Source: Methanocaldococcus sp. 16A (GTDB taxonomy: Archaea > AGJL01 > Methanococci > Methanococcales > Methanocaldococcaceae). From it: DNA of 64,000 nt. The first letter of the stretch is position 1; every line of letters starts with the position of its first letter. The stretch lies in assembly GCA_049860595.1 (NCBI GenBank), contig CP187551.1; one strand, 5' to 3'. Below the pieces are notes generated by a model. That model was not told where the DNA came from. It did not search any database and saw only the letters and a program-made list of their open reading frames with translations. Below are positions 1,911 to 20,456 of the stretch, one piece after another. The translations under genes and the position numbers were made by a program.

Positions 1911-2648
1911 ATGAAAGCTATATTTATTTACCACAAAGGTAACGAAAGAATGGAAAAATTCTATAAAAATTTATTAAATGAGCCAGATTTTTGTAGAATT
2001 TGTGATGATTGCTACAACTGCAGAGGGACTTGGAGCTTCAAAGATAATGTAAAAAATATTGTCATTGATGAAGTTTATGAAGAATTTATAGACAACCCTT
2101 ACGATTATCTTCCAGAGCTTCCAGAAGGAGATGTTTGTATAGCTCAATTGCATGAAGATTTATTGTATGAGCTTCCTTTATTGCTAAAAGAAAAAAATTA
2201 CAAAGCTTTAATTGTTCCTTCTGAAACTCCACATGATTTGTCTCCAGCATTAAGGAGAGATTTAAGTAGAGTCTGTAAAGAGTACAATATAGAATTCGAA
2301 AACCCGAAACCATTCTGTTCATTAGAGAAAAAAGAAAATAATGAGTTTATAAACAAATTTATTGACTATTTCAAAATAGGAAAACCTGAATTGAAGATAG
2401 AAGTTGAAGATAATGTTGTTAAAGATGCTAAGGTTAAAATCTCTGCCCCATGTGGAGAGACATATTACATAGCTAAAAGATTGAAAGGAAAAACTATAAA
2501 CGATTTGAAAGAAGAAATTGCAAATGCTCATCATAATTATCCATGTTTGGCAAGTATGGAAATGGATAAAGAGTTAGGAGATACTATTTTACATAAAGCG
2601 GGATATATTGCAATTGAGAGCGTTGAAAAAGCTATAAAAAATAAATAA
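1911..2648 (+). CDS. DUF166-family Cys-rich protein (MJ0757-like, historically called a putative thymidylate synthase)
   Basis: CRICDDCYNC, PKPFCSL, SAPCG, HHNYPCLASM and DTILHKAG motifs. Confidence 0.7.
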   Translation: MKAIFIYHKGNERMEKFYKNLLNEPDFCRICDDCYNCRGTWSFKDNVKNIVIDEVYEEFIDNPYDYLPELPEGDVCIAQLHEDLLYELPLLLKEKNYKALIVPSETPHDLSPALRRDLSRVCKEYNIEFENPKPFCSLEKKENNEFINKFIDYFKIGKPELKIEVEDNVVKDAKVKISAPCGETYYIAKRLKGKTINDLKEEIANAHHNYPCLASMEMDKELGDTILHKAGYIAIESVEKAIKNK

Positions 2649-4497: not shown

Positions 4498-5235
4498 ATG
4501 AAAAACATGATAAAATTAACTTTCATATCATTAATAGCTTCAATAGTTCTTTTAACAGGATGTGTAACTCAAAATACAGAAAATACCAACATGCAAAATA
4601 ACCAAATTGATTATCAAAGCCAAATTGATATGGGAAAAGGAAAAATAGTAGGAAATAATGGAAATATAAATGTCAGTTTAATCTGTAAAGACATTGATGC
4701 TCTACCAAAACAGCCAATAAGTGAAGAAGAAAAAGAAGGTTTAATTGAAATGAGGGAAGAAGAAAAATTGGCTAGGGATGTTTATTTAACCTTATACCAC
4801 AAGTGGGGGTTGCAAATATTCAAAAATATTGCTGAAAGTGAGCAAACTCATATGGATTCAGTTAAATATCTCTTAGATAAATACAATATTCCGGATCCTG
4901 TTAAAAGTGATGAGGTTGGAAAATTCTCAAATCCAAAATTTGAAGAACTTTATAATAAGTTAGTTGAGCAGGGTAGCAAATCTGTTGTTGATGCGTTAAA
5001 AGTTGGAGCAACTATTGAGGACTTGGATATTGCTGATTTAGAACATTGGATAAGTAAAACAGATAATGAAGATATAAAATTTGTTTATGAAAACTTAATG
5101 AAAGGTTCAAGAAACCACATGAGGGCTTTTGTTAGTATGTTAGAAAGATATGGAGCAAATTACACCCCACAGTATATAAGTAAGGAAGAATTTGAGCAAA
5201 TAATAAGTAGTTCAATGGAGAGAGGAAATAGGTGA
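4498..5235 (+). CDS. DUF2202 ferritin-like lipoprotein
   Basis: Lipobox-like LLTGC; [20 protein letters not shown] and GSRNHMRAF diiron-type motifs. Confidence 0.85.
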
Positions 5236-5870
5236 AGAATATGAAGAAGTTATTTACTATTTTTTTACTTTTTACTCTTTTTACTTTTTTAAGTTTATCT
5301 TTTGCATGGGATGACTGTCCTTTTGGAAGAGTGAATTGTACATATCCAGGAGAATGTGGAAGATATATTGATACAAATAATAATGGAATTTGCAACCATA
5401 GTGAGCCAGCTCCTACATCCTTAGAAAATCCAAATATAGAAAATAATAACATAAATAACACAAATGTAGAATTAACAGAGGAATTAATTGATGAATATGT
5501 CAATATATCCGGAAAAGAATTAAAATTATACACCATAAAAGAAATTTGCGATAAATATGGCATAAATCCAAACTGTTTAAAAGAAAAGTTAAAAATTAAT
5601 GTTCCTGAAGATACAACATTTGATGAGATAAAAAAGACTTATGGAATTTCACCAAGTGATGTTAAAAAAGCAATTGTTGAGTGTATGATTGAAGAAGGTA
5701 AAATTAAATTAAATATAACTCAAAATAAAAATATATCAAATTTAAACAACAACTTAGATAATAAAAATAGTTCTATTATAGATAAAATAATATCCTTTCT
5801 ATTCTCAACAATAAACCTAAGAGACCTATTATTTGGGTGTGGTTATAAATGGATAAAATACAGACATTAA
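5232..5870 (+). CDS. Secreted Cys-motif hypothetical protein
   Basis: Signal peptide followed by [32 protein letters not shown]. Confidence 0.7.
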
Positions 5871-10299: not shown

Positions 10300-11055
10300 G
10301 TGGTTTATATGATTAAAGAAAAGACAAAAGTGAAGGTTATTGGCTTAGAACTACCAATATTTAAAGGAAATGAAGATATAAATTTATCCGAACTAATAGC
10401 CCAATATCCAATTGAAGATGGGGATATTATTGTAATTGCAGAAACGTTAATCTCAAAATTAGAAGGAAACGTAATAGATAAAGACAAAATAATTCCTTCA
10501 AAAGAAGCTATTGAATTAGCTGAAAAAACTGGAAAAGACCCAAAAGTTGTTCAAGTTATTTTAGATGAAGCTAAAGAAGTAGTTAAAGTTGGAAAGAATT
10601 TTATTATTACAGAAACAAAACATGGCTTTGTTTGTGCCAATAGCGGTGTTGATGAAAGTAATGTGTTAGGTATAAAAACCCTGCCAAGAAACCCTGACGA
10701 GAGTGCTGAAAAAATTAGAAAAGAGATTGAAGAATTAACTGGAAAAAGAGTAGGGGTTATAATATCTGATAGTGTTGGAAGACCTTTTAGGAAGGGAGCT
10801 GTTGGAATAGCAATAGGTGTTAGTGGAATCTTGGCATTGTGGGATAGAAAAGGAGAAAAAGATTTATTTGGAAGGGAGTTAAAAACTACTGAAGTTGCTA
10901 TTGCCGATGAGTTGGCAAGTATGGCAAATGTTGTTATGGGAGAAGCTGATGAAGGAATCCCTGTTGTGATAATTAGAGGGGCTAAAGTCCCATTTGGTGA
11001 TGGAAAAGGAAAAGATTTAATTAGACCAAAAGAAGAAGATGTTTTTAGAACATAA
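10300..11055 (+). CDS. cofE: Coenzyme F420-0:L-glutamate ligase
   Basis: ISKLEG, CANSGVDESN, IISDSVGRPFRKGAVG and DLFGREL motifs. Confidence 0.95.
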   Translation: MVYMIKEKTKVKVIGLELPIFKGNEDINLSELIAQYPIEDGDIIVIAETLISKLEGNVIDKDKIIPSKEAIELAEKTGKDPKVVQVILDEAKEVVKVGKNFIITETKHGFVCANSGVDESNVLGIKTLPRNPDESAEKIRKEIEELTGKRVGVIISDSVGRPFRKGAVGIAIGVSGILALWDRKGEKDLFGRELKTTEVAIADELASMANVVMGEADEGIPVVIIRGAKVPFGDGKGKDLIRPKEEDVFRT

Positions 11056-11072
11056 TTTTTTGGTGAGCTTAA

Positions 11073-11756
11073 ATGGTGAAAAAAGTTTATGGTATTGGTG
11101 TAGGAGTTGGAGACAAAAAGCTACTAACTTTAAGAGCATTGGAAATTTTAAAAAAAGTGGATAAAATATTTGTTCCAATATCTAAAGAAGGAAAAAAATC
11201 TATCGCTTATGAGATTATAAAGGATTACATTTATGGAAAGGAAATAGAGGAGCTATTATTCCCAATGATTAAAGATAAAAACAAATTAAAAAAATATTGG
11301 GGAAATGCTTTAGAGAAAGTTTTAAATGAAGATGGGGAAGTTGCTATAATAACAATTGGTGACCCAACACTTTACAGCACATTCTCTTATGTTTGGAAAC
11401 TTTTAAGAGAGAAAGGTGTTGAGATAGAGATAATTAATGGAATATCTTCAATCTTTGCTTCTGCAGCAGCTTTGAAAATCCCATTAGTTGAAGGCGATGA
11501 AAAACTATGCATTCTTCCACAGGGAAAAGATTTAGAGAAATATATTAATGAATTTGACACAATAATTATTATGAAAACAAAAAATTTAAAAGAAAAGTTA
11601 GAAAAAATAAAGAATAGAGATGATTATATAGTTGGTTTAGTAAAGAGAGTAACATTTGAAGATGAAAAAGTAGTAATTGGTAAATTAGATGAGTTGAATT
11701 TCGATGAATTTAATGATTATCTCTCCTTAGCTATAATAAAGAGGGTTAAAAAATGA
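11073..11756 (+). CDS. cbiL: Cobalt-precorrin-2 C20-methyltransferase
   Basis: YGIGVGVGD, IGDPTLYSTF and GISS motifs. Confidence 0.85.
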   Translation: MVKKVYGIGVGVGDKKLLTLRALEILKKVDKIFVPISKEGKKSIAYEIIKDYIYGKEIEELLFPMIKDKNKLKKYWGNALEKVLNEDGEVAIITIGDPTLYSTFSYVWKLLREKGVEIEIINGISSIFASAAALKIPLVEGDEKLCILPQGKDLEKYINEFDTIIIMKTKNLKEKLEKIKNRDDYIVGLVKRVTFEDEKVVIGKLDELNFDEFNDYLSLAIIKRVKK

Positions 11757-12814
11757 AAATAATAAGAGCAGTTCCTGAAGAATTTTTAAATGGATTATAT
11801 TTAATTCCAACAGATAGAGGAAATTTGTTAGAGTTAGATGAAAACGGAAATTTTGAAGTAGTTAATAATATACCAATAATTAGAATTTTAGCAACACCAA
11901 ATTTAAAAAAGACGATAGCAAAGATTGTCTATCAAATCAAAGATAAATATTATCTCTTTAAAGATTACAAAAAAGCAAGCTGGTTAAAAAATCTTTTAGA
12001 ATATATTAACAACAAAATTGAATTTGATAAATACTACAGAGCCAAAAAAGCATGGTATAGAGGAATAGGAGATTTATTTAAAAATATAAGGACATGGGAT
12101 TTTGAAAAAGTCATTGGGAAAATAATCTCATTATTAAAAGTTTTAAACCCAATAATTGTTTTTGATGTTCATGACATACGGAAATGGCATTATGGAAAGA
12201 GTTTTATAAACTTTGTTAAAGAATTAAGAAAAAACAATTTAAGTGTTGTGATAAGATATCCAATTGATTGTCATGAGGAAATTAGAGAAATTTTTCCAGA
12301 AGGTACTTTAAATACAAAAGCAGCTATAAAATACTTTGCAAAGATTCATGGTTATTATATAAGCAATAAAGTGGCTGATTATTTACTAAAAATAACTAAT
12401 GGAAACTTAGAAACAATATATTTAATACTAAGACACTCAAAAAGGGAAATAAAAAATCTTAGAGAGCTAAAAATACCATGGCTTAAAATTTTACCATATA
12501 TAGTGGATTCGAAATATCGAAAATTGGTTGAGGCAATAATAGAGTTACGGAAGTTTAAAGTTGAAGATATCATCTATAAGGTTAATTACAAATTATCAAC
12601 ATTATACAGATATTTAGACGAATTGGTTGAGTTAGGTATATTAACAAAAATAAAACACAAAGGTAGAGTTAGGTTTAAAATAAGATTAAATAGAAACATC
12701 CTTTTAGAGCTCATTAAAAAATCTAAAAATAACTATTTTCATTGGTTCTCTATTTTTTTGTTAGATAGTATACCGTGGAATATACGGATTTTCGAATTTT
12801 CGAAGAATATATAG
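11753..12814 (+). CDS. Degenerate AAA+-like protein with C-terminal wHTH
   Basis: Walker-B-like IIVFD, lid-like TNGNL and wHTH STLYRYLDELVELGIL; no recognisable Walker A. Confidence 0.55.
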   Translation: MKIIRAVPEEFLNGLYLIPTDRGNLLELDENGNFEVVNNIPIIRILATPNLKKTIAKIVYQIKDKYYLFKDYKKASWLKNLLEYINNKIEFDKYYRAKKAWYRGIGDLFKNIRTWDFEKVIGKIISLLKVLNPIIVFDVHDIRKWHYGKSFINFVKELRKNNLSVVIRYPIDCHEEIREIFPEGTLNTKAAIKYFAKIHGYYISNKVADYLLKITNGNLETIYLILRHSKREIKNLRELKIPWLKILPYIVDSKYRKLVEAIIELRKFKVEDIIYKVNYKLSTLYRYLDELVELGILTKIKHKGRVRFKIRLNRNILLELIKKSKNNYFHWFSIFLLDSIPWNIRIFEFSKNI

Positions 12815-12955
12815 AGTTAAGGATTATCATACTAACCTGGACGATAGTGTTAATATTTATTGATTGTGCAAAGTTGTGACAAAATCTTGTTTTATTTTTT
12901 GACATATTGTTAATATTTTAAGAAATTCAATTTAAATACTAACTTCTTATAAGAT

Positions 12956-13331
12956 TTTCGAATTTTCGAGTTGAATGTATGTATATGAGAAGATATTCTA
13001 TCGAGAGTTAATAATGGTTGTGAATATCACAAACATGACTATTATATTATTATACTTTTTTTCTCAATATAAGTTAAAAACATAAAAATTTTATGTTTTT
13101 AGTTTAAATTTAATATATTACAAAATATTTACAAAAAACAATGTTAAAAAAATTGTTATTTTAAAAAATAAAAATAAAAAACAACAAATGAATATAAAAA
13201 TCCAACATTAACTGTTTGTTATACAAAATAATATACAGTAATCTCTATCTTATTTTTGTGATAATCTGTTCTTTGAAAAATTCTTGCTCATCTGATATCC
13301 ATATACATACATTCGACTCGAAAATTCGAAA
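12956..13331. repeat. 32-bp inverted repeat pair flanking an AT-rich 312-bp core
   Basis: 12956-12987 TTTCGAATTTTCGAGTTGAATGTATGTATATG against 13300-13331 CATATACATACATTCGACTCGAAAATTCGAAA; 31/32 reverse-complement match. Confidence 0.9.
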
Positions 13332-13335
13332 TTTA

Positions 13336-13863
13336 TTAATCCTGATTTTTCAATGTGTTGTAGAACTTTTTCAGATAATTAATATGTTTACAGTTATCAC
13401 TCTGACAGATAACACACCACCAATGACCTCTATTGCTTCTAAAAACGTCTCCTAAATGCTCTCCGTTGGAATCAAAGAACGAAAATATAAATCCTCCAAG
13501 TTTATCTTCTTTCCATCTGATTTCAAACCCTATCCTATCTACCGGGTAATACTTAGTAGCAATTTTCTTTTTAGGTAATTGTTCGAAAACACTCGAAAAA
13601 CTCAAATCGAATATTTCTGGGGCTAATCTTTTTAATATCGCTAATCCTTTTGAGGTAAATGAATATATAACCTTATGTCCTGCTCTTTCCCTCTTCATTA
13701 TGTTTAGAGCTGAACACAACCTTAAAAAAGAGCTTGCAAGACCTTTCGATATATTTAAATTCTCTGCGAGTGATTGTGGATAAGTTGTGCCACGTATTAA
13801 CACATAATGTAAAATGGCTTTTCTAAATATAGTTGATATGATTTCGTATGGTAATCTTTCCAT
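13336..13863 (-). CDS. wHTH DNA-binding protein with C-terminal SWIM-like zinc finger
   Basis: YPQSLAENLNISKGLASSFL HTH; WWCVICQSDNCKH. Confidence 0.75.
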   Translation of the reverse strand: MERLPYEIISTIFRKAILHYVLIRGTTYPQSLAENLNISKGLASSFLRLCSALNIMKRERAGHKVIYSFTSKGLAILKRLAPEIFDLSFSSVFEQLPKKKIATKYYPVDRIGFEIRWKEDKLGGFIFSFFDSNGEHLGDVFRSNRGHWWCVICQSDNCKHINYLKKFYNTLKNQD

Positions 13864-13951
13864 TTATAACACCTTTATTTTTGATATAAATTATTTTTTT
13901 GCTCTTATGTTATTGGTGTTCAATTATATTTACTATACTTACTTATAAATC

Positions 13952-14370
13952 TTTTGATTCACGATATAGTTTTACCCACTAATTTTTCGTTGCAGTATTA
14001 CCAATATTTTAAAAATTTTTGTTTGAATATAGGTATTGATAGAGCATGTATTTATTTATTTCTTTTATATTCCAATTTTATATTTTTCTTTACTAATAGT
14101 ATATAGTTTTAATATATTGTTAATTAGAGTATAATTTTTGATTCATAGTATTTTGTATATTATAAGTTTAGATTCACGATATTTTATTTTTCGTGTGTTG
14201 TAATAATTCCCATGAGAAGAATTAAAATTAATTTTATTTCATTAGAATAATATATATATTATTTTTATTTTTATTCAAGTTTGTTTCTGAGAATGATGTT
14301 TATTTGCATTATATATAATATTATTTGATTCACGATATTTTTTAATTTTATTGTTTGATTCATAATATTT
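13952..14370 (+). repeat. Five direct repeats, approximate consensus TTTGATTCAYRATATTT, in an AT-rich intergenic region (candidate oriC)
   Basis: GATTCA cores at 13956, 14140, 14171, 14327 and 14357, upstream of the Cdc6-like gene. Confidence 0.8.
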
Positions 14371-14538
14371 TTAAAAATAAAATATATAACAAAATATTTA
14401 AATTAATTAATAATTAATTACATCTATTATTCTATTTTTCGAAATCTATATAATACACTTAGAACAAAAATTCGAAACCACTACAGAACATTATAATTAT
14501 CAATTCAAATTAATTCATATTTTATTATCGGTGGAAAC

Positions 14539-15768
14539 ATGGACCCAATAGAGTTTATACAAAAATCTGCAAGCTCTATAGCAAGCACCATGCATAAATT
14601 GAAATTAAAATATAATCCATTTTCTGAGAAGCCAATAAGAGGCAATACAAAGTTTTTTGTTGGTAGAGTTAGTGAGTTGAGGGAGATTGGAGAGATCTTA
14701 GGTTCTGCTTTGCATGGTAGTGTAGCCAATGCTGCAATAGTTGGGACTAAGGGGATAGGAAAGAGTTCAATGCTCAACATCATATACTATGCTACAAAAA
14801 AGCAAGGACATTGGGTTGTTGAGCTAACAGCCTCTCAAATAACGCCAAGACAATTTTTGATACAACTTTTATACAATATATTAACTGAAAATATTCTAAC
14901 TATGAGTGGAACTATAAAATCTGATTATATGGAGCATTCAAACAGAATTTTGGACATGTATAGAAAGTTAAACAACTATGGAGATAAAGTTCCTATACAT
15001 TATCCAAGAGAGAGAATTGAAAGAGATTTAGAATATTTAATAAATGAAGTTAAAAGCCAGGATAAGTTATGTATAATATTAATTGATGAAGCAGACCAAT
15101 TTGCAAAAAAAAGCTGTTTATCTTTATTACAATTTTTCCACTCATTTTTGTATGAAGAAGGAATTTTAACCTTCATGGCAGGTTCCCCAACATTAATGGA
15201 TGATTTGACAAAAATATCTCCACCAATAAAAGATAGAATTCCAAAGATAATAAATATGCCTCCTTTATCAAAAGATGAGTCCTATGATTTAATTAGAAGA
15301 AGATTAGAAGATGCGCATATAGATGGTGCTGAGGAATTTGAGCCGTTTACTGAAGATGCTATACACAAGATTGTTGAAGAGTGTGATGGTATTCCAAGAA
15401 AGATAATAATGACTTGCTCTGAGTCTATATCAATAGCTATAAGAAAAGGTTTAACCAAAATAGATGAGAGAGTAGTTAAAGAGGCTATGCATTCTCTTGG
15501 GATTAGTGTAGGGCATCAAATTCTAAATCATTTAACTCCTGCCCAGTCAGAGATTGTTAGGGCAATGGCGGAGCTTGGAGGTTCTGCAACTGTAACTCAA
15601 CTTTCTGAATATTTAAAAAAATCACCAAGTACTATTGGAACACATTTATCAGACATTTATGAGATGGGATATATTTATAAAGAAAGGGATGGAAACAATG
15701 TGTATTATAGACTGTCTAAAGAACTTAGGGATGTTTTAATAGGTGAAGATGATGAATTGGAGATGTGA
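14539..15768 (+). CDS. AAA+ ATPase with C-terminal ArsR-type wHTH (distant Orc1/Cdc6-like, MJ0774-like)
   Basis: NPF and FVGR..EL motifs, Walker A GTKGIGKS, Walker B ILIDEAD, lid DGIPR, C-terminal wHTH. Confidence 0.8.
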   Translation: MDPIEFIQKSASSIASTMHKLKLKYNPFSEKPIRGNTKFFVGRVSELREIGEILGSALHGSVANAAIVGTKGIGKSSMLNIIYYATKKQGHWVVELTASQITPRQFLIQLLYNILTENILTMSGTIKSDYMEHSNRILDMYRKLNNYGDKVPIHYPRERIERDLEYLINEVKSQDKLCIILIDEADQFAKKSCLSLLQFFHSFLYEEGILTFMAGSPTLMDDLTKISPPIKDRIPKIINMPPLSKDESYDLIRRRLEDAHIDGAEEFEPFTEDAIHKIVEECDGIPRKIIMTCSESISIAIRKGLTKIDERVVKEAMHSLGISVGHQILNHLTPAQSEIVRAMAELGGSATVTQLSEYLKKSPSTIGTHLSDIYEMGYIYKERDGNNVYYRLSKELRDVLIGEDDELEM

Positions 15769-16684
15769 TGTTCAAAATTTTGAGCCAGATGTTAAAATAT
15801 CTTTAACAAGAGTAGGAGTTACAAATCTAAAAAAACTTGTTAGATTAAAAAGAAAAAATAAACGACCTATTATTTTATTATCTACTTTTGAAGTTTTTGT
15901 TAATTTGCCGAGCTCACAAAAAGGTATTCACATGTCAAGAAATCCTGAAGTTATAGAGGGAATTATAGATGAAGCATTAGAGATGGAGAGTTATGAGATA
16001 GAAACAATTTGTGAAGAGATTGTTAAGAGATTGTTTGAAAAACATGAATACGCTACAGAAGCAGAGGTTTTTATGGTTAGTGATTTCATGACTAAGGAGA
16101 AAAGCCCAATATCTGAGAAATATTCTCAAGAGATACATAAAATTATGGGTGGAGCTAAAGGAATAAAGAAAGATGATAAAATTGAAATAACAAAAATTGT
16201 TGGGGCTGAAGTTATTGGCATCACTGCTTGTCCATGTGCTCAAAATTTAATAAAAGAGATATCTATTAGAAATTTAAAGGAAAAAGGATTTTCTGATGAA
16301 GATATTGAGAAAATATTGGATTCTGTTATCTTTGCTACTCACAACCAGAGAGGAATTGGTAGAATTATATTAGAAGTTCCTACAGGTTATGATATTGAGA
16401 TTATGGATATCATTGATATAATTAAAAAATCCATGAGTGCTGAGATTTATGGAATTTTGAAGAGAGCTGATGAAGCTTATGTTGTTGAACAAAGCCATAA
16501 AAATCCTAAGTTTGTTGAGGATTGTGTTAGAGAGATGGCTAAAAGAGTTGTAGAGAAGTTTAAACATCTACCAGATGAAACAAAGGTTTCAATTAGGCAA
16601 ATAAATATGGAAAGTATTCATAGACATGATGCATTTGCTGAAAAAGTAGCAACTCTTGGAGAATTACGGAGAGAACTAGAATAA
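15743..16684 (+). CDS. mptA: GTP cyclohydrolase MptA (FolE2-like)
   Basis: LTRVGV, KGIHMSR, ITACPCA, ATHNQRG, NPKFVED and ESIHRH motifs. Confidence 0.95.
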   Translation: MKMMNWRCDVQNFEPDVKISLTRVGVTNLKKLVRLKRKNKRPIILLSTFEVFVNLPSSQKGIHMSRNPEVIEGIIDEALEMESYEIETICEEIVKRLFEKHEYATEAEVFMVSDFMTKEKSPISEKYSQEIHKIMGGAKGIKKDDKIEITKIVGAEVIGITACPCAQNLIKEISIRNLKEKGFSDEDIEKILDSVIFATHNQRGIGRIILEVPTGYDIEIMDIIDIIKKSMSAEIYGILKRADEAYVVEQSHKNPKFVEDCVREMAKRVVEKFKHLPDETKVSIRQINMESIHRHDAFAEKVATLGELRRELE

Positions 16685-16731: not shown

Positions 16732-17841
16732 ATGGGGGAGAATTTGAAAGCTTTGGTTTTAGGAGTTAATACAAGACCTGTAGTTAATTCTCTCAAAAAA
16801 TTAGGATTCTATGTATATTCTGTTTCTTACTATGCCCCAGAAGATTTAAATGCTGATAAAATATATTATCTGATAAATCCTTTAGCTCATGGAAGGTTGA
16901 GAGAAAATTATAATGAGAATAGATTAATTGAGATAGCTAATGAATTAGTTGATGAAGTTGATTATATCTTTATAACTTCGGGTGTTTTTGAATTCGAAAA
17001 TTCGAAAGTTCCAAAATGGGATAATGTTGTAGGCAACGAGCCAAAAAAGATAAATGAAATATCCAATAAATTTAAAACATGTAAAAAATTAAAAAATTTA
17101 GGTTTTAATGTACCAGAAACAAAGAAAATTAACAATAAAACTCAATTATATAAATTTTTGGAAGAATTTAAATCCTGTGTTTTAAAGCCTATTTACGGTA
17201 GTGGAGGAGGAGTTATAAAGCTGAATTTAAATGATTATAGTGATGAGTTAATTTGTAATATCAAATTCCCAATTATTGCTCAAGAGTATATTGGAGGGAA
17301 AAGTTTTAGTGCTAACTTTATAGGCAATACATTTATAACCTTTAACAAACAAATTATTATTAAGGGAATGTATGCTGGAAATTTAACACCATATCTAAAT
17401 TTGCCAAATAAGTTTATTAAAATATTTAGTGAGGTTATAGAAGCTTTTGGACTAAAAGGAATGAGTGGAATTGATTTTTTAATTAAAGATAATGAGCCAT
17501 GTATTGTTGATATAAACCCACGAATTTTAGGAACGTTTGAAACTATAGAGCTGAGTGCATCTCAAAATTTAGCAAAAGCTCTATTAAATAACAAATATAC
17601 CAAAGAAATTAAACTAAAAGAGACATATATAAAGAGGATATTGTTTGCTAAAGAAAAAATTATTGCAAATATATCAAAAAGAGACTTTGTATATGATATT
17701 CCAAAGAAAAATGCAGTTATAGAGAAAGGAGAACCTATAGCTACAGTAATTGCAAAAGAAAACATTAAATCAATAATAAACAGCGTTTATAAGGAGTGTG
17801 CAGAGTATGACAAAAGAAAACAAGATAGAGAGGATATATGA
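16732..17841 (+). CDS. ATP-grasp domain protein
   Basis: VLKPIYGSGG, QEYIGG, GIDF and DINPR motifs. Confidence 0.85.
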   Translation: MGENLKALVLGVNTRPVVNSLKKLGFYVYSVSYYAPEDLNADKIYYLINPLAHGRLRENYNENRLIEIANELVDEVDYIFITSGVFEFENSKVPKWDNVVGNEPKKINEISNKFKTCKKLKNLGFNVPETKKINNKTQLYKFLEEFKSCVLKPIYGSGGGVIKLNLNDYSDELICNIKFPIIAQEYIGGKSFSANFIGNTFITFNKQIIIKGMYAGNLTPYLNLPNKFIKIFSEVIEAFGLKGMSGIDFLIKDNEPCIVDINPRILGTFETIELSASQNLAKALLNNKYTKEIKLKETYIKRILFAKEKIIANISKRDFVYDIPKKNAVIEKGEPIATVIAKENIKSIINSVYKECAEYDKRKQDREDI

Positions 17842-18953: not shown

Positions 18954-20456
18954 ATGACAACTCTCCGCCCAAAGCAGAGGTTTCTTTAGGAGAGCAGAGG
19001 GTTAAAAACCCTCACCCTCCATGGGTTGCCAAGCCCACTATCCCTATCCCTTTCGGGATTCGGGACTACCTTAAATAAAATATTCCTCGCACCATTAACA
19101 TCCGCATTAATAACAGCTCCACACTCAGAACAAACATATAAACCTCTATATTTCCTATTCGATTTCTTTATTACTCCACAAACACTGCATTTTTGAGATG
19201 TATAACTTTCATTCACCAAATCTACTGTTATTCCTTCTTCTTCAGCTTTATAAGTTATTTTATGTATTAGTTTTCCGAACGGAATTCTGTGCAGTTGCTG
19301 ATTTATTCTATCTCCAATATCAATTTTAGTTAAATTTTCACTTAAATTTCCTATAACAATCTTCGAAACTCCTTTTTCTTTCGCTAAATTTACAATCCCT
19401 CTGCTAATCTTGTGAATATAGTCATTAATATAATTCCTTTCCTTCACCGCTAACTTCGATAATTGCTTGCAAGTCTTCAAACCTTGTTCTGCAATTTGAG
19501 ATTTAACTCTCGCTATCTCTTTAGCGAACCACCTTAATTTAGACAATAAAATTTTCCCATCGAATATTAATGGTTGTTTATCTCCTTGTATCACTGTAGT
19601 TGCTAAGTTCTTCACTCCTAAATCTACTGCCATTACTTTTTCTTTCTTAGGTTTTTCTGGATTAACTTCCTTTTTATAAATCAAATGTAGAACATAAAAT
19701 CTCTGCCCATAAATATCGTGAGGAACAATCTCAACCTCTTTAACCTGCATGACATCGAGCGGTAGAGTTTTCGGCATCGTAGCTTTGCTACGAGTAGCAA
19801 AATTCTTTGAATTTTGCATGAACTCTACCCATAGAAACTTGGACTCGATGCCATGCTTTTCTTTGAGATATTGTCTTGTTTGCTTTGATAAGGACAATCT
19901 TAACTTATTACCGATAATTTTAAGTCCATCTTTTTTCCATTTCACTGGAAAATGTCCATTTTTAGGTTGAAATCTTGGTCTCTTCGTATGTTGTTTAAAG
20001 CAGTTGAGCCATGCGATTTTTAATTTCTGCAAAACTGCTTGTGCTGACTGTGAATGAAGGTTTTTATACCAAAAATTAGTTTTTAGTTTCTTTTCTAATT
20101 CATTAATCTTTATATTGCCTTGCATAACTTGATAGTTAGCAACATTCCATAATTTTGATGAGAAATAAGTTAAATGGTTTAAGATAATCCATTGTTCGTC
20201 TGTTAATTTTCTCGTTAGATTTATCGTTAAAACTCTCGTTACTTCCAACATAGACACCTTTCTGGTAGTCCGTATGATGTGGTGGTATTTCTTTGGTAGG
20301 GATTTAATTCCAGAATAACTATATTATATAGGACAACATTAATATATAAAATTATGTCTCCTTCTTTCTCCCCTATCTCCTTGTGAAGCAAGGAGAGTGT
20401 ACTGAAATCTGAAAGATTTGTCTGAATTCATCACCGCCCTAAAGCAGAGTTTCTTA
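18954..20456 (-). mobile_element. tnpB-only IS200/IS605-family element (IS1341-like, non-autonomous)
   Basis: Related subterminal hairpin sequences at both ends. Minus-strand LE is TTAC|TAAGAAACTCTGCTTTAGGGCGGTGATGAATTC; RE is GAAACCTCTGCTTTGGGCGGAGAGTTGTCAT. No tnpA seen. Inserted between convergent genes. Exact ends are inferred. Confidence 0.8.
18986..20257 (-). CDS. tnpB: RNA-guided endonuclease TnpB
   Basis: RuvC-I AVDLG, VNESYTSQKC, Zn finger CSVC/CSEC, RuvC-III NADVNGARNI. Confidence 0.95.
   Translation of the reverse strand: MSMLEVTRVLTINLTRKLTDEQWIILNHLTYFSSKLWNVANYQVMQGNIKINELEKKLKTNFWYKNLHSQSAQAVLQKLKIAWLNCFKQHTKRPRFQPKNGHFPVKWKKDGLKIIGNKLRLSLSKQTRQYLKEKHGIESKFLWVEFMQNSKNFATRSKATMPKTLPLDVMQVKEVEIVPHDIYGQRFYVLHLIYKKEVNPEKPKKEKVMAVDLGVKNLATTVIQGDKQPLIFDGKILLSKLRWFAKEIARVKSQIAEQGLKTCKQLSKLAVKERNYINDYIHKISRGIVNLAKEKGVSKIVIGNLSENLTKIDIGDRINQQLHRIPFGKLIHKITYKAEEEGITVDLVNESYTSQKCSVCGVIKKSNRKYRGLYVCSECGAVINADVNGARNILFKVVPNPERDRDSGLGNPWRVRVFNPLLS

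Follow-up and report, generated by a model that had tools for sequence, protein, structure and literature searches.

How chromosome replication begins in the Methanococcales is the question raised by the locus described here, initiation without a recognisable Orc1/Cdc6 protein in this order and in Methanopyrus being a long-standing gap, with no origin mapped in the group, according to the passages on these archaea in PMC3914693 and PMC5333045. The locus lies in a 64,000-nucleotide stretch of Methanocaldococcus sp. 16A (contig CP187551.1), hereafter the window, which corresponds to 832–896 kb of a 1.58-Mb chromosome; two small further contigs bring the genome to 1.62 Mb in all. Three genes are concerned: g1 (11753–12814, plus strand, 353 residues) converges on g2 (13336–13863, minus strand, 175 residues) across a gap of 521 nt (gap 1, 12815–13335), and g2 diverges from g3 (14539–15768, plus strand, 409 residues) across a gap of 675 nt (gap 2, 13864–14538). 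The open reading frame (ORF) call that gives these coordinates bears out an earlier note, made from the letters of the window, which had described three genes parted by two unusually long intergenic regions; both regions are also very AT-rich. We propose, with a probability of about 0.6, that this stretch is the species' copy of a conserved, lineage-specific origin-and-initiator island of the Methanococcales. The proposal draws on the want of any other initiator candidate in the order and on g3, which is single-copy and conserved like core machinery; on the two gaps, each of rigid build, without a second copy in the genome and of extreme AT content, gap 1 having the geometry of inverted boxes around an unwinding element that is seen in mapped archaeal origins; and on a whole layout that parallels the Pyrococcus oriC, with part of the Z-curve turning within 26–70 kb of the locus.

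Part of the island is already on record. Section 3.4 of PMC4009838 cites the MJ0774 family, to which g3 belongs, as a proposed distant Cdc6 homologue beside an oriC predicted from the Z-curve (Zhang & Zhang, 2004), which agrees with what the earlier note had said of MJ0774 (PMC4009838, PMC3531139). In their accounts of DoriC 5.0, PMC3531139 and PMC4009838 have one predicted origin per Methanococcales genome placed by this family; two predicted origins are given in PMC4009844 and one in PMC4164010, Table 1 of which lists a Methanococcaceae origin recognition box (ORB) motif for Ori-Finder 2. Section 10 of the Ori-Finder-Arch preprint (10.64898/2026.08.15.744077) defines the family, there called Mc-pRIP, by an AAA+ domain, an HTH_5 domain and a hidden Markov model of the lid of about 90 residues between them, and describes a structural likeness to Cdc6. 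g3 is this published putative initiator: it combines AAA+ with HTH_5, in a family annotated as ArsR/MarR/LysR regulators, gap 2 is the adjacent gap of the published oriC, and the boxes in gap 2 fit. Hence g3, gap 2 and its B boxes are already known, computationally, from DoriC and Ori-Finder. For g1, g2, gap 1 with its inverted boxes and the motif that we call A we found nothing in print, and these, together with two genomes in which g3 is detached from the rest, go unmentioned in the parts of the above sources that deal with the Mc-pRIP origin. Our literature search on MJ0772/MJ0773 found no naming paper, the additional files of PMC2643942 and PMC3914693 being places that may list neighbours, and that on the motif A strings found none in a relevant context, where supplements may hold more.

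Conservation was surveyed in 40 genomes of the Methanococcales, and 29 of 30 loci were fetched; the locus counts exclude G013, in which the island is divided between two short contigs. g3 is present in 31 of the genomes, g1 and g2 in 30 each, the same nine genomes lack all three genes, and in G032 a contig begins with g3. All 29 loci have the complete unit of g1, gap 1, g2 and gap 2, with 456–756 nt in gap 1 and 611–857 nt in gap 2, and in 27 of them g3 follows, to give the order g1(+), gap 1, g2(−), gap 2, g3(+). Both motif families keep their position, orientation and spacing across five genera. Synteny and co-occurrence of the three genes and both motifs, the check that the earlier note had named, was thus passed strongly, in the 27 loci of common order and in the joint absence from the same nine genomes. 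In G003 and G004 the island (L058 and L060) is intact with all B boxes and the central element of gap 2, and g3 is found hundreds of kilobases away (L057, 3001–4212; L059, 2501–3712), 20–30 nt behind an unrelated gene and with no long upstream gap; motif A is absent from their gap 2. In these two genomes the ATPase has been separated naturally from the cis elements, and g1 and g2 are inherited together with both gaps even where g3 has moved away.

The DNA of the two gaps is unusual for this genome. On a rough ORF map the gaps between genes have a median of 75 nt and a 95th percentile of 425 nt, which both island gaps exceed, and only four of the 200 convergent gaps reach at least 500 nt. Gaps of at least 300 nt have a median GC content of 26.6%; gap 2 has 17.5%, and the spacer of gap 1 has 17.9%, falling to 12.7% at its core, so that both are among the most AT-rich DNA of a genome of 30% GC. 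Gap 1 is built around motif A, TTTCG-N3-TTTCG. Its left arm (12956–12987, plus strand) consists of motif A as TTTCGAATTTTCGA, a 5-nt linker and ATGTATGTATA; its right arm (13300–13331, minus strand) is the same composite box inverted and ends 4 nt before the g2 stop codon. The arms form an inverted repeat of 32 nt with 97% complementarity around the spacer of 312 bp (12988–13299), and ATGTATGTATA occurs just twice in the genome, once in each arm. About 37 nt inside each arm stands an inner element of ATCACAA type, AATATCACAA at 13023–13032 and TTGTGATAAT at 13256–13265. Each of the 29 loci has one arm on the plus and one on the minus strand, and the spacer between them measures 296–325 bp in 28 (577 bp in L053), with a GC content of 9.8–24.4% and an interior that is not conserved. 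Gap 1 thus has inverted long boxes flanking a candidate unwinding element, as expected of an oriC, and its geometry, two composite boxes of about 30 nt in inverted orientation, separated by a constant interval of about 310 bp with the most easily melted DNA, is that of a classical archaeal origin.

An inverted repeat of this length and complementarity, with a TATA-like sequence after each motif A, would also suit a foldback or miniature inverted-repeat transposable element (MITE)-like mobile remnant, or an unannotated structured RNA gene with pairing ends. A MITE or foldback element is expected in several copies at varying places; the arms are the sole copies in the genome, the element being single-copy, and they stand in the same place in 29 of 29 loci from five genera. 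For an RNA gene, the interior is not conserved, and Rfam gives no match either in 11000–16500 at E up to 1 or in the whole window at the gathering score. The 5-nt linkers differ between the two arms in distant genera (for example in L045, L046 and L052) without co-variation, so that conservation follows the two sequence blocks and not base pairing, a pattern that favours binding sites for protein over a stem in RNA or in a cruciform; the reading of the arms as a stem was dropped on this ground. A mobile or RNA origin of gap 1 therefore appears to us very improbable indeed. Contigs from RNA runs (11 runs, four studies) contain 0.48–0.89 of the sampled words of the orthologous 4.2-kb stretch, a figure that is not used here as evidence. 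A switch from T-rich to A-rich composition across the spacer proved to be no general feature, the right half being richer in A than the left in just 17 of 29 loci. To the left of the left arm, inspection of 10 loci by eye picks out a conserved block, GTGCAAAGTTGTGACA (12866–12881, plus strand), and, at about 12920–12950, a hairpin-like palindrome (AAGAAAT..N..ATTTCTT) whose loop is A/T-rich.

Gap 2 is organized differently. Five B boxes of TTGATTCAYRRTAT type lie on the plus strand at 13955, 14139, 14170, 14326 and 14356 (span 13955–14368), and GATTCAYRRTAT has five exact sites in the whole 1.62-Mb genome, all of them in gap 2 and on one strand. The boxes fit the Methanococcaceae ORB motif given as TT[TA][GT]ATTCA[TC][GA]AT[AT]T[AT]T[AT] in Table 1 of PMC4164010. 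Their spacing is 184/31/156/30 nt in the window and in L033, 184/31/155/31 in L041, 184/30/147/30 in L043, 182/30/156/30 in L046 and L051 and 181/30/156/30 in L053, so that five genera share an array of five rigidly spaced boxes that covers 415 bp; summed over the 29 loci, the 7-mer core of the box occurs 149 times on the plus (g3) strand and nine times on the minus strand. B1 lies about 92 nt from the g2 start, beside a TATA-like TTTATAAG on the g2 strand. The pairs B2–B3 and B4–B5 flank a central element (14205–14295, plus strand, between B3 and B4; ATAGT(T/A)TATATA) that contains ATAGTTTATATA, which resembles a transcription factor B recognition element (BRE) with a TATA box; it is kept in all 16 aligned loci, including both from which g3 has moved away, and is a candidate promoter or melting site. 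Gap 2 accordingly presents AT-rich non-coding DNA beside the putative initiator gene, with boxes unique to the locus, as an oriC should. The central element also resembles a strong archaeal promoter, about 290 nt upstream of g3, and could drive an unannotated transcript through B4 and B5.

The two gaps are linked by motif A. In the g3 promoter region (14430–14477, plus strand) a degenerate copy, TTCTATTTTTCGAAATC, abuts TATATAA, and about 20 nt farther downstream an inverted half copy, AAAATTCGAAAC, occupies 14465–14477, so that the core of the gap-1 boxes also brackets the g3 TATA box. All 27 colinear loci have at least one motif A, at up to one mismatch, 40–258 nt before g3; the two loci whose g3 has moved have none there. 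The idea that each gap carries its own repeat family is therefore only in part right, motif A of gap 1 recurring in gap 2 at the g3 promoter.

Motif A also extends beyond the gaps. Six exact sites exist in this genome, all within 41 kb of the 1.58-Mb chromosome, three of them in the island and three inside genes. Copy 1 (TTTCGAATTTTCGA, 12790–12803, plus strand) falls in the last codons of g1 (..IFEFSKNI and stop), where a copy with up to one mismatch is present in 21 of 29 loci. The genic sites lie in an ATP-grasp gene (16994–17007, minus strand), where EFENSK is written with the rare codons TTC and TCG, in a DUF166 gene (2296–2309, minus strand), where EFENPK is written with the rare codon CCG, and in an unnamed gene (C1:807590–807603). 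CGA accounts here for 1.0% of arginine codons, TCG for 1.6% of serine, CTC for 3.0% of leucine and CCG for 3.4% of proline codons, and CpG stands at 0.30 of expectation. Of the 11 same-genus loci with ENSK at the ATP-grasp site, 10 retain TCG, and the flanking synonymous sites vary, a pattern that indicates selection at the DNA level. With one mismatch allowed, TTTCGNNNTTTCG has nine sites in the window against 1.67 expected, a number that none of 100 shuffles reaches. The TTTCGNNTTTTCGR pattern has no site in the eight genomes of one group without the three genes and 2–11 sites in genomes with them (0–5 for the reversed control). Of the 51 motif A sites that single-contig genomes have outside the locus, 25 are no more than 50 kb away from it, where about 6% would be expected, in a set of related genomes that are not independent. 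One exact match to TTTCGNNNTTTCG (TTTCGATATTTCG) lies at 12510–12522 on the minus strand, within the g1 coding region.

This clustering, and the maintenance of rare codons at genic sites while neighbouring synonymous sites vary, might instead belong to a chromosome-organizing or segregation system of centromere-like kind, in which the three proteins would bind motif A sites gathered around the locus, as parS sites are around bacterial origins, and hold or partition the many genome copies. Profile comparison relates the winged helices of g2 and g3 weakly (0.003 and 0.04, respectively) to AspA, a protein that binds centromeres in archaea; these matches are generic ArsR-fold similarity. The island holds no ParA- or SMC-type partner gene, however, and the clustering is weak in the genomes that the tool assigns to a genus labelled g2, with one of six sites near the locus in G017 and one of nine in G019. 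The scattered sites examined mix coding and non-coding DNA and have nothing in common, and the farther sites in Methanococcus-type genomes resemble a mix of chance matches. We consider segregation as the function of the island quite improbable.

The protein g3 is an AAA+ ATPase with a C-terminal winged helix. Pfam finds AAA_16, ATPase_2, AAA and AAA_22 followed by a C-terminal ArsR-type HTH_5 (1.6e-12; residues 334–381). The Walker A motif GTKGIGKS (residues 69–76) and the Walker B motif LIDEAD (181–186) are invariant in 17 of 17 aligned orthologues from five genera, for which the mean column identity is 82%. g3 is single-copy and full-length, with orthologues in 30 other genomes, within the published range of the Mc-pRIP family, and 69–99% identity across the order; judged by its alignments, its conservation is at the level of core information-processing proteins. 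The intact Walker A/B AAA+ module is what membership of Orc1/Cdc6 calls for, and g3 is the top sub-threshold match to the curated Orc1/Cdc6 model TIGR02928 in the genomes that possess it. None of the 40 genomes reaches the cut-off of that model, and the order is described as having lost and replaced Cdc6 in the relevant passage of PMC3914693, or as having a highly divergent one in that of PMC5333045.

The two companion genes are less familiar. g1 comprises an AAA+-like domain, a lid and a winged helix (about residues 270–312). In the alignment ATPNLKKT (A47–T54) replaces GxxxxGKT and IIVFDVHD (I134–D141) replaces hhhhDE, the Walker A glycines and the Walker B glutamate being substituted. No Pfam family reaches its cut-off with g1, and a profile search against solved structures gives nothing below 0.2. 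Its AlphaFold model (pLDDT 84.6) has as best Foldseek matches CED-4, yeast Cdc6, human ORC4/5, MalT and archaeal Cdc6/ORC, with E-values of 3e-4 to 1e-2, probabilities up to 0.99 and TM scores of 0.2–0.27, which are low because the domains are arranged differently. On the model and the alignment, 'degenerate AAA+ plus winged helix' is a fair description of g1. An ATPase-domain paralogy of g1 and g3 is unsupported by sequence, hhalign aligning only the winged helices (E 5.6e-4, probability 30%). In the ESM Atlas g1 lies near AAA_14, ATPase_2, AAA_16 and nSTAND clusters at 0.86–0.90, as leads only, and its family has 25 matches, all from Methanococcales, among 5.8 billion cluster representatives, none with a precomputed Pfam family for the fold. 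The g1 start overlaps by 4 nt the stop of an upstream tetrapyrrole-methylase gene (PF00590, 11073–11756), as it does in L060, so that g1 is probably co-transcribed with this cofactor-biosynthesis gene and has no promoter of its own.

g2 begins with an ArsR-type winged helix, according to a profile match to solved ArsR/CzrA proteins (8.3e-6), a Foldseek probability of 1.00 to ArsR/MarR chains and HTH_5 matches in seven of 22 orthologues (best 3.7e-5). Its C-terminal module, a β-sheet plus helix, contains W-C-x2-C-x4-C-x-H (W149, C150, C153, C158 and H160; codons at about 13384–13419, minus strand), invariant in the alignment. The SWIM zinc finger has the signature CxCxnCxH, and a SWIM finger was rejected for g2 on its different pattern, C-x2-C-x4-C-x-H, no SWIM family being among the first 25 of 35 Pfam families matched by the 22 orthologues at E up to 10. 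The neighbours of g2 in the ESM Atlas, again as leads only, are a PadR-named cluster (0.92) and a zinc-ribbon cluster (0.86). Domain, model and alignment evidence together bear out the gene content that the earlier note had given: a degenerate AAA+-winged-helix protein, a winged helix with a zinc module and an intact AAA+-winged-helix protein. Complex predictions that combine g3, g2 and g1, with g1 as the partner, score 0.27 and 0.01 against a mark of 0.32, which is evidence neither way.

A series of observations lowers our confidence in an origin-and-initiator island, beginning with the family of g3 itself. Its score against TIGR02928 is 28.4 bits (model positions 93–301) for a cut-off of 181.3, and its winged helix is ArsR-type and not Cdc6-type, the Cdc6-type winged helix (PF09079) being absent from the 25 best of 27 Pfam families matched at E up to 1. 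Against solved structures its profile has weak matches only (ArsR-like 2e-3, yeast ORC1 0.086, fly Cdc6 0.12). In 1.84 billion representatives a profile search detects full-length relatives from beyond the order, the strongest at 1e-39; among 10 of these that were scanned, eight match AAA_16, ATPase_2 or nSTAND, six of the eight also have an ArsR/MarR-type winged helix, two of the 10 have a short ORC-CDC6-like P-loop match, and a Cdc6-type winged helix is listed in none. The nearest relatives outside the order are thus unnamed AAA_16/ATPase_2 plus winged-helix proteins. The very nearest, reached via a 77%-identical copy of P0028, is at L084:5920–7200 on an archaeal metagenome contig of 58–60% GC, between shikimate-pathway genes and a PAC2-family gene, without g1, g2 or a long AT-rich gap. 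On these profiles g3 belongs to the ORC/Cdc6/STAND neighbourhood, outside Orc1/Cdc6 proper, and the case for it as an initiator rests on context, not on family.

The genome setting adds to these reservations. The Z-curve of the chromosome that holds the window reaches its MK maximum at 818 kb and its GC-disparity minimum at 774 kb, respectively 26 and 70 kb off the locus at 844–848 kb, with the RY and AT extremes elsewhere and all curves noisy. Neither an MCM nor a PolD gene lies near the locus (about 845 kb) in this genome, the MCM genes being at 724 kb, at 1.56 Mb and on contig C2 and the PolD DP2 gene at 1.44 Mb, and the idea of a 'replication island' was dropped for that reason. A marker-frequency study of M. 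jannaschii found no single origin, as quoted in PMC1904270, and the origin of the Methanococcales is described in the corresponding passage of PMC5333045 as predicted in silico only. The TTCC..GAA core of ORB and mini-ORB elements, as given by the sequences in PMC1904270 and in Table 1 of PMC4164010, is absent from motifs A and B.

The absence of the island from part of the order belongs with these points. The nine genomes without the genes are G011, an 81%-complete assembly, and eight of one group to which the tool gives the genus label g3 (G024, G027, G028, G029, G030, G031, G034 and G035; 0.9–1.5 Mb). These eight lack all three genes and any motif A; G024 and G031 are 99% complete, and a search with the family profile for a diverged g3 in G024, G027, G028, G031 and G035 found nothing. 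Eight genomes with neither island nor canonical Cdc6 mean that the island is not indispensable for the order, and the group, in which no Orc1/Cdc6 reaches the cut-off either, has no recognisable initiator at all.

Finally, motif A has promoter-linked sites, at g3 and elsewhere. In three other genera a full arm-like motif A box occupies the space between the genes for 5S rRNA and RNase P RNA, at a distance of about 10 kb from the island, and the RNase P RNA begins 22–36 nt after it (L065 and L067–L070, about 1001–1014; L066 by eye), an arrangement that a plain transcription-factor operator explains equally. Upstream of the RNase P RNA of the present genome (C1:795247–795504) there is no motif A, and at 10 scattered motif A sites fetched from other genomes there is no Rfam RNA; a role as a general promoter element of stable RNA genes was rejected on both counts.

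These sites lead to the alternative that the locus is an autoregulated cluster of transcription factors and no origin, in which g1, g2 and g3 would be regulators, motifs A and B their operators and the long gaps control regions. The bracketing of the g3 TATA box by motif A, the abutment of B1 on a TATA-like element on the g2 side and the boxes before RNase P RNA would all be natural in such a cluster, as would the ArsR-type winged helices of g2 and of the g3 C-terminus, the ordinary metabolic neighbourhoods of distant g3 relatives and the absence of the island from eight genomes. Gap 1 is less easily accommodated, however: it lies between convergent 3′ ends, so that there is no promoter there to control, and operators need no layout in which arms are held at 296–325 bp around unconserved DNA of 10–24% GC. 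Nor does a regulator cluster account readily for five rigidly spaced boxes over 415 bp in five genera, for a g3 as conserved as core information-processing proteins or for an order without another initiator candidate. Taking both sides together we regard regulation without an origin as unlikely.

Under the preferred origin-and-initiator interpretation, ATP-bound g3, helped or restrained by g1 and g2, would assemble on the boxes, and this assembly would open the AT-rich DNA and recruit MCM; protein on the arms might also shut off g3 transcription, giving an initiator-titration loop. Because motif A brackets the g3 promoter and B1 stands at the g2 promoter, our guess would be that g3 reads motif A and g2 the B boxes, and if g3 does read motif A, gap 1 and not the published gap 2 would be the unwinding site. 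A more elaborate proposal, which we hold doubtful as a whole, joins these elements: a lineage-specific three-protein machine would have replaced Orc1/Cdc6, with g3 as the active ATPase, g1 as an ATPase-dead ORC-like subunit and g2 as a zinc-bearing ArsR-type protein; the origin would be bipartite, gap 1 being the real unwinding site and gap 2 a loading or regulatory array coupled to it via motif A at the g3 promoter; and the rare-codon genic motif A sites would form a parS-like origin-proximal domain of about 40 kb on each side.

Comparison with characterized systems shows both likeness and difference. The oriC of Pyrococcus and other Thermococcales, as described in the relevant parts of PMC1904270, likewise has two boxes of about 34 bp as an inverted repeat and a layout kept across its order, but is served by a canonical Cdc6/Orc1 whose binding was established by chromatin immunoprecipitation and gel shift, whereas the three proteins here are non-canonical and known from sequence alone. 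In Sulfolobus islandicus oriC3 provides a precedent, being an archaeal origin read by a winged-helix protein other than Orc1/Cdc6, namely WhiP, yet WhiP is presented in PMC5333045 as a distant Cdt1 relative without an AAA+ domain, and the searches made here give it no relation to g1, g2 or g3. The pairing of an intact g3 with a degenerate g1, the model of which matches Cdc6, ORC4 and ORC5, recalls eukaryotic ORC/Cdc6; the matches are nonetheless weak, and those to the STAND proteins CED-4 and MalT are their equal.

The island offers a short list of testable parts, three proteins, two types of box at fixed positions and two candidate melting regions, all of which are present in genetically tractable Methanococcus species, and natural variants for their dissection exist in the two genomes with a detached g3 and the one sub-lineage without the island. 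If DNA does open in gap 1, origin databases mark the wrong spacer for the Methanococcales.

Two features of the surroundings may be added. Elements, extrachromosomal or integrated, with extra mcm genes are known in the Methanococcales, and the 27-kb contig C2 is probably one of these: it carries a homologue of MCM at 4629–5282 (244 bits) together with two one-mismatch motif A sites. In the window itself, 3 kb beyond g3, an ORF of 423 residues (18986–20257, minus strand) with C-terminal CxxC..CxxC pairs resembles by eye a TnpB/OrfB protein of IS200/IS605 type.

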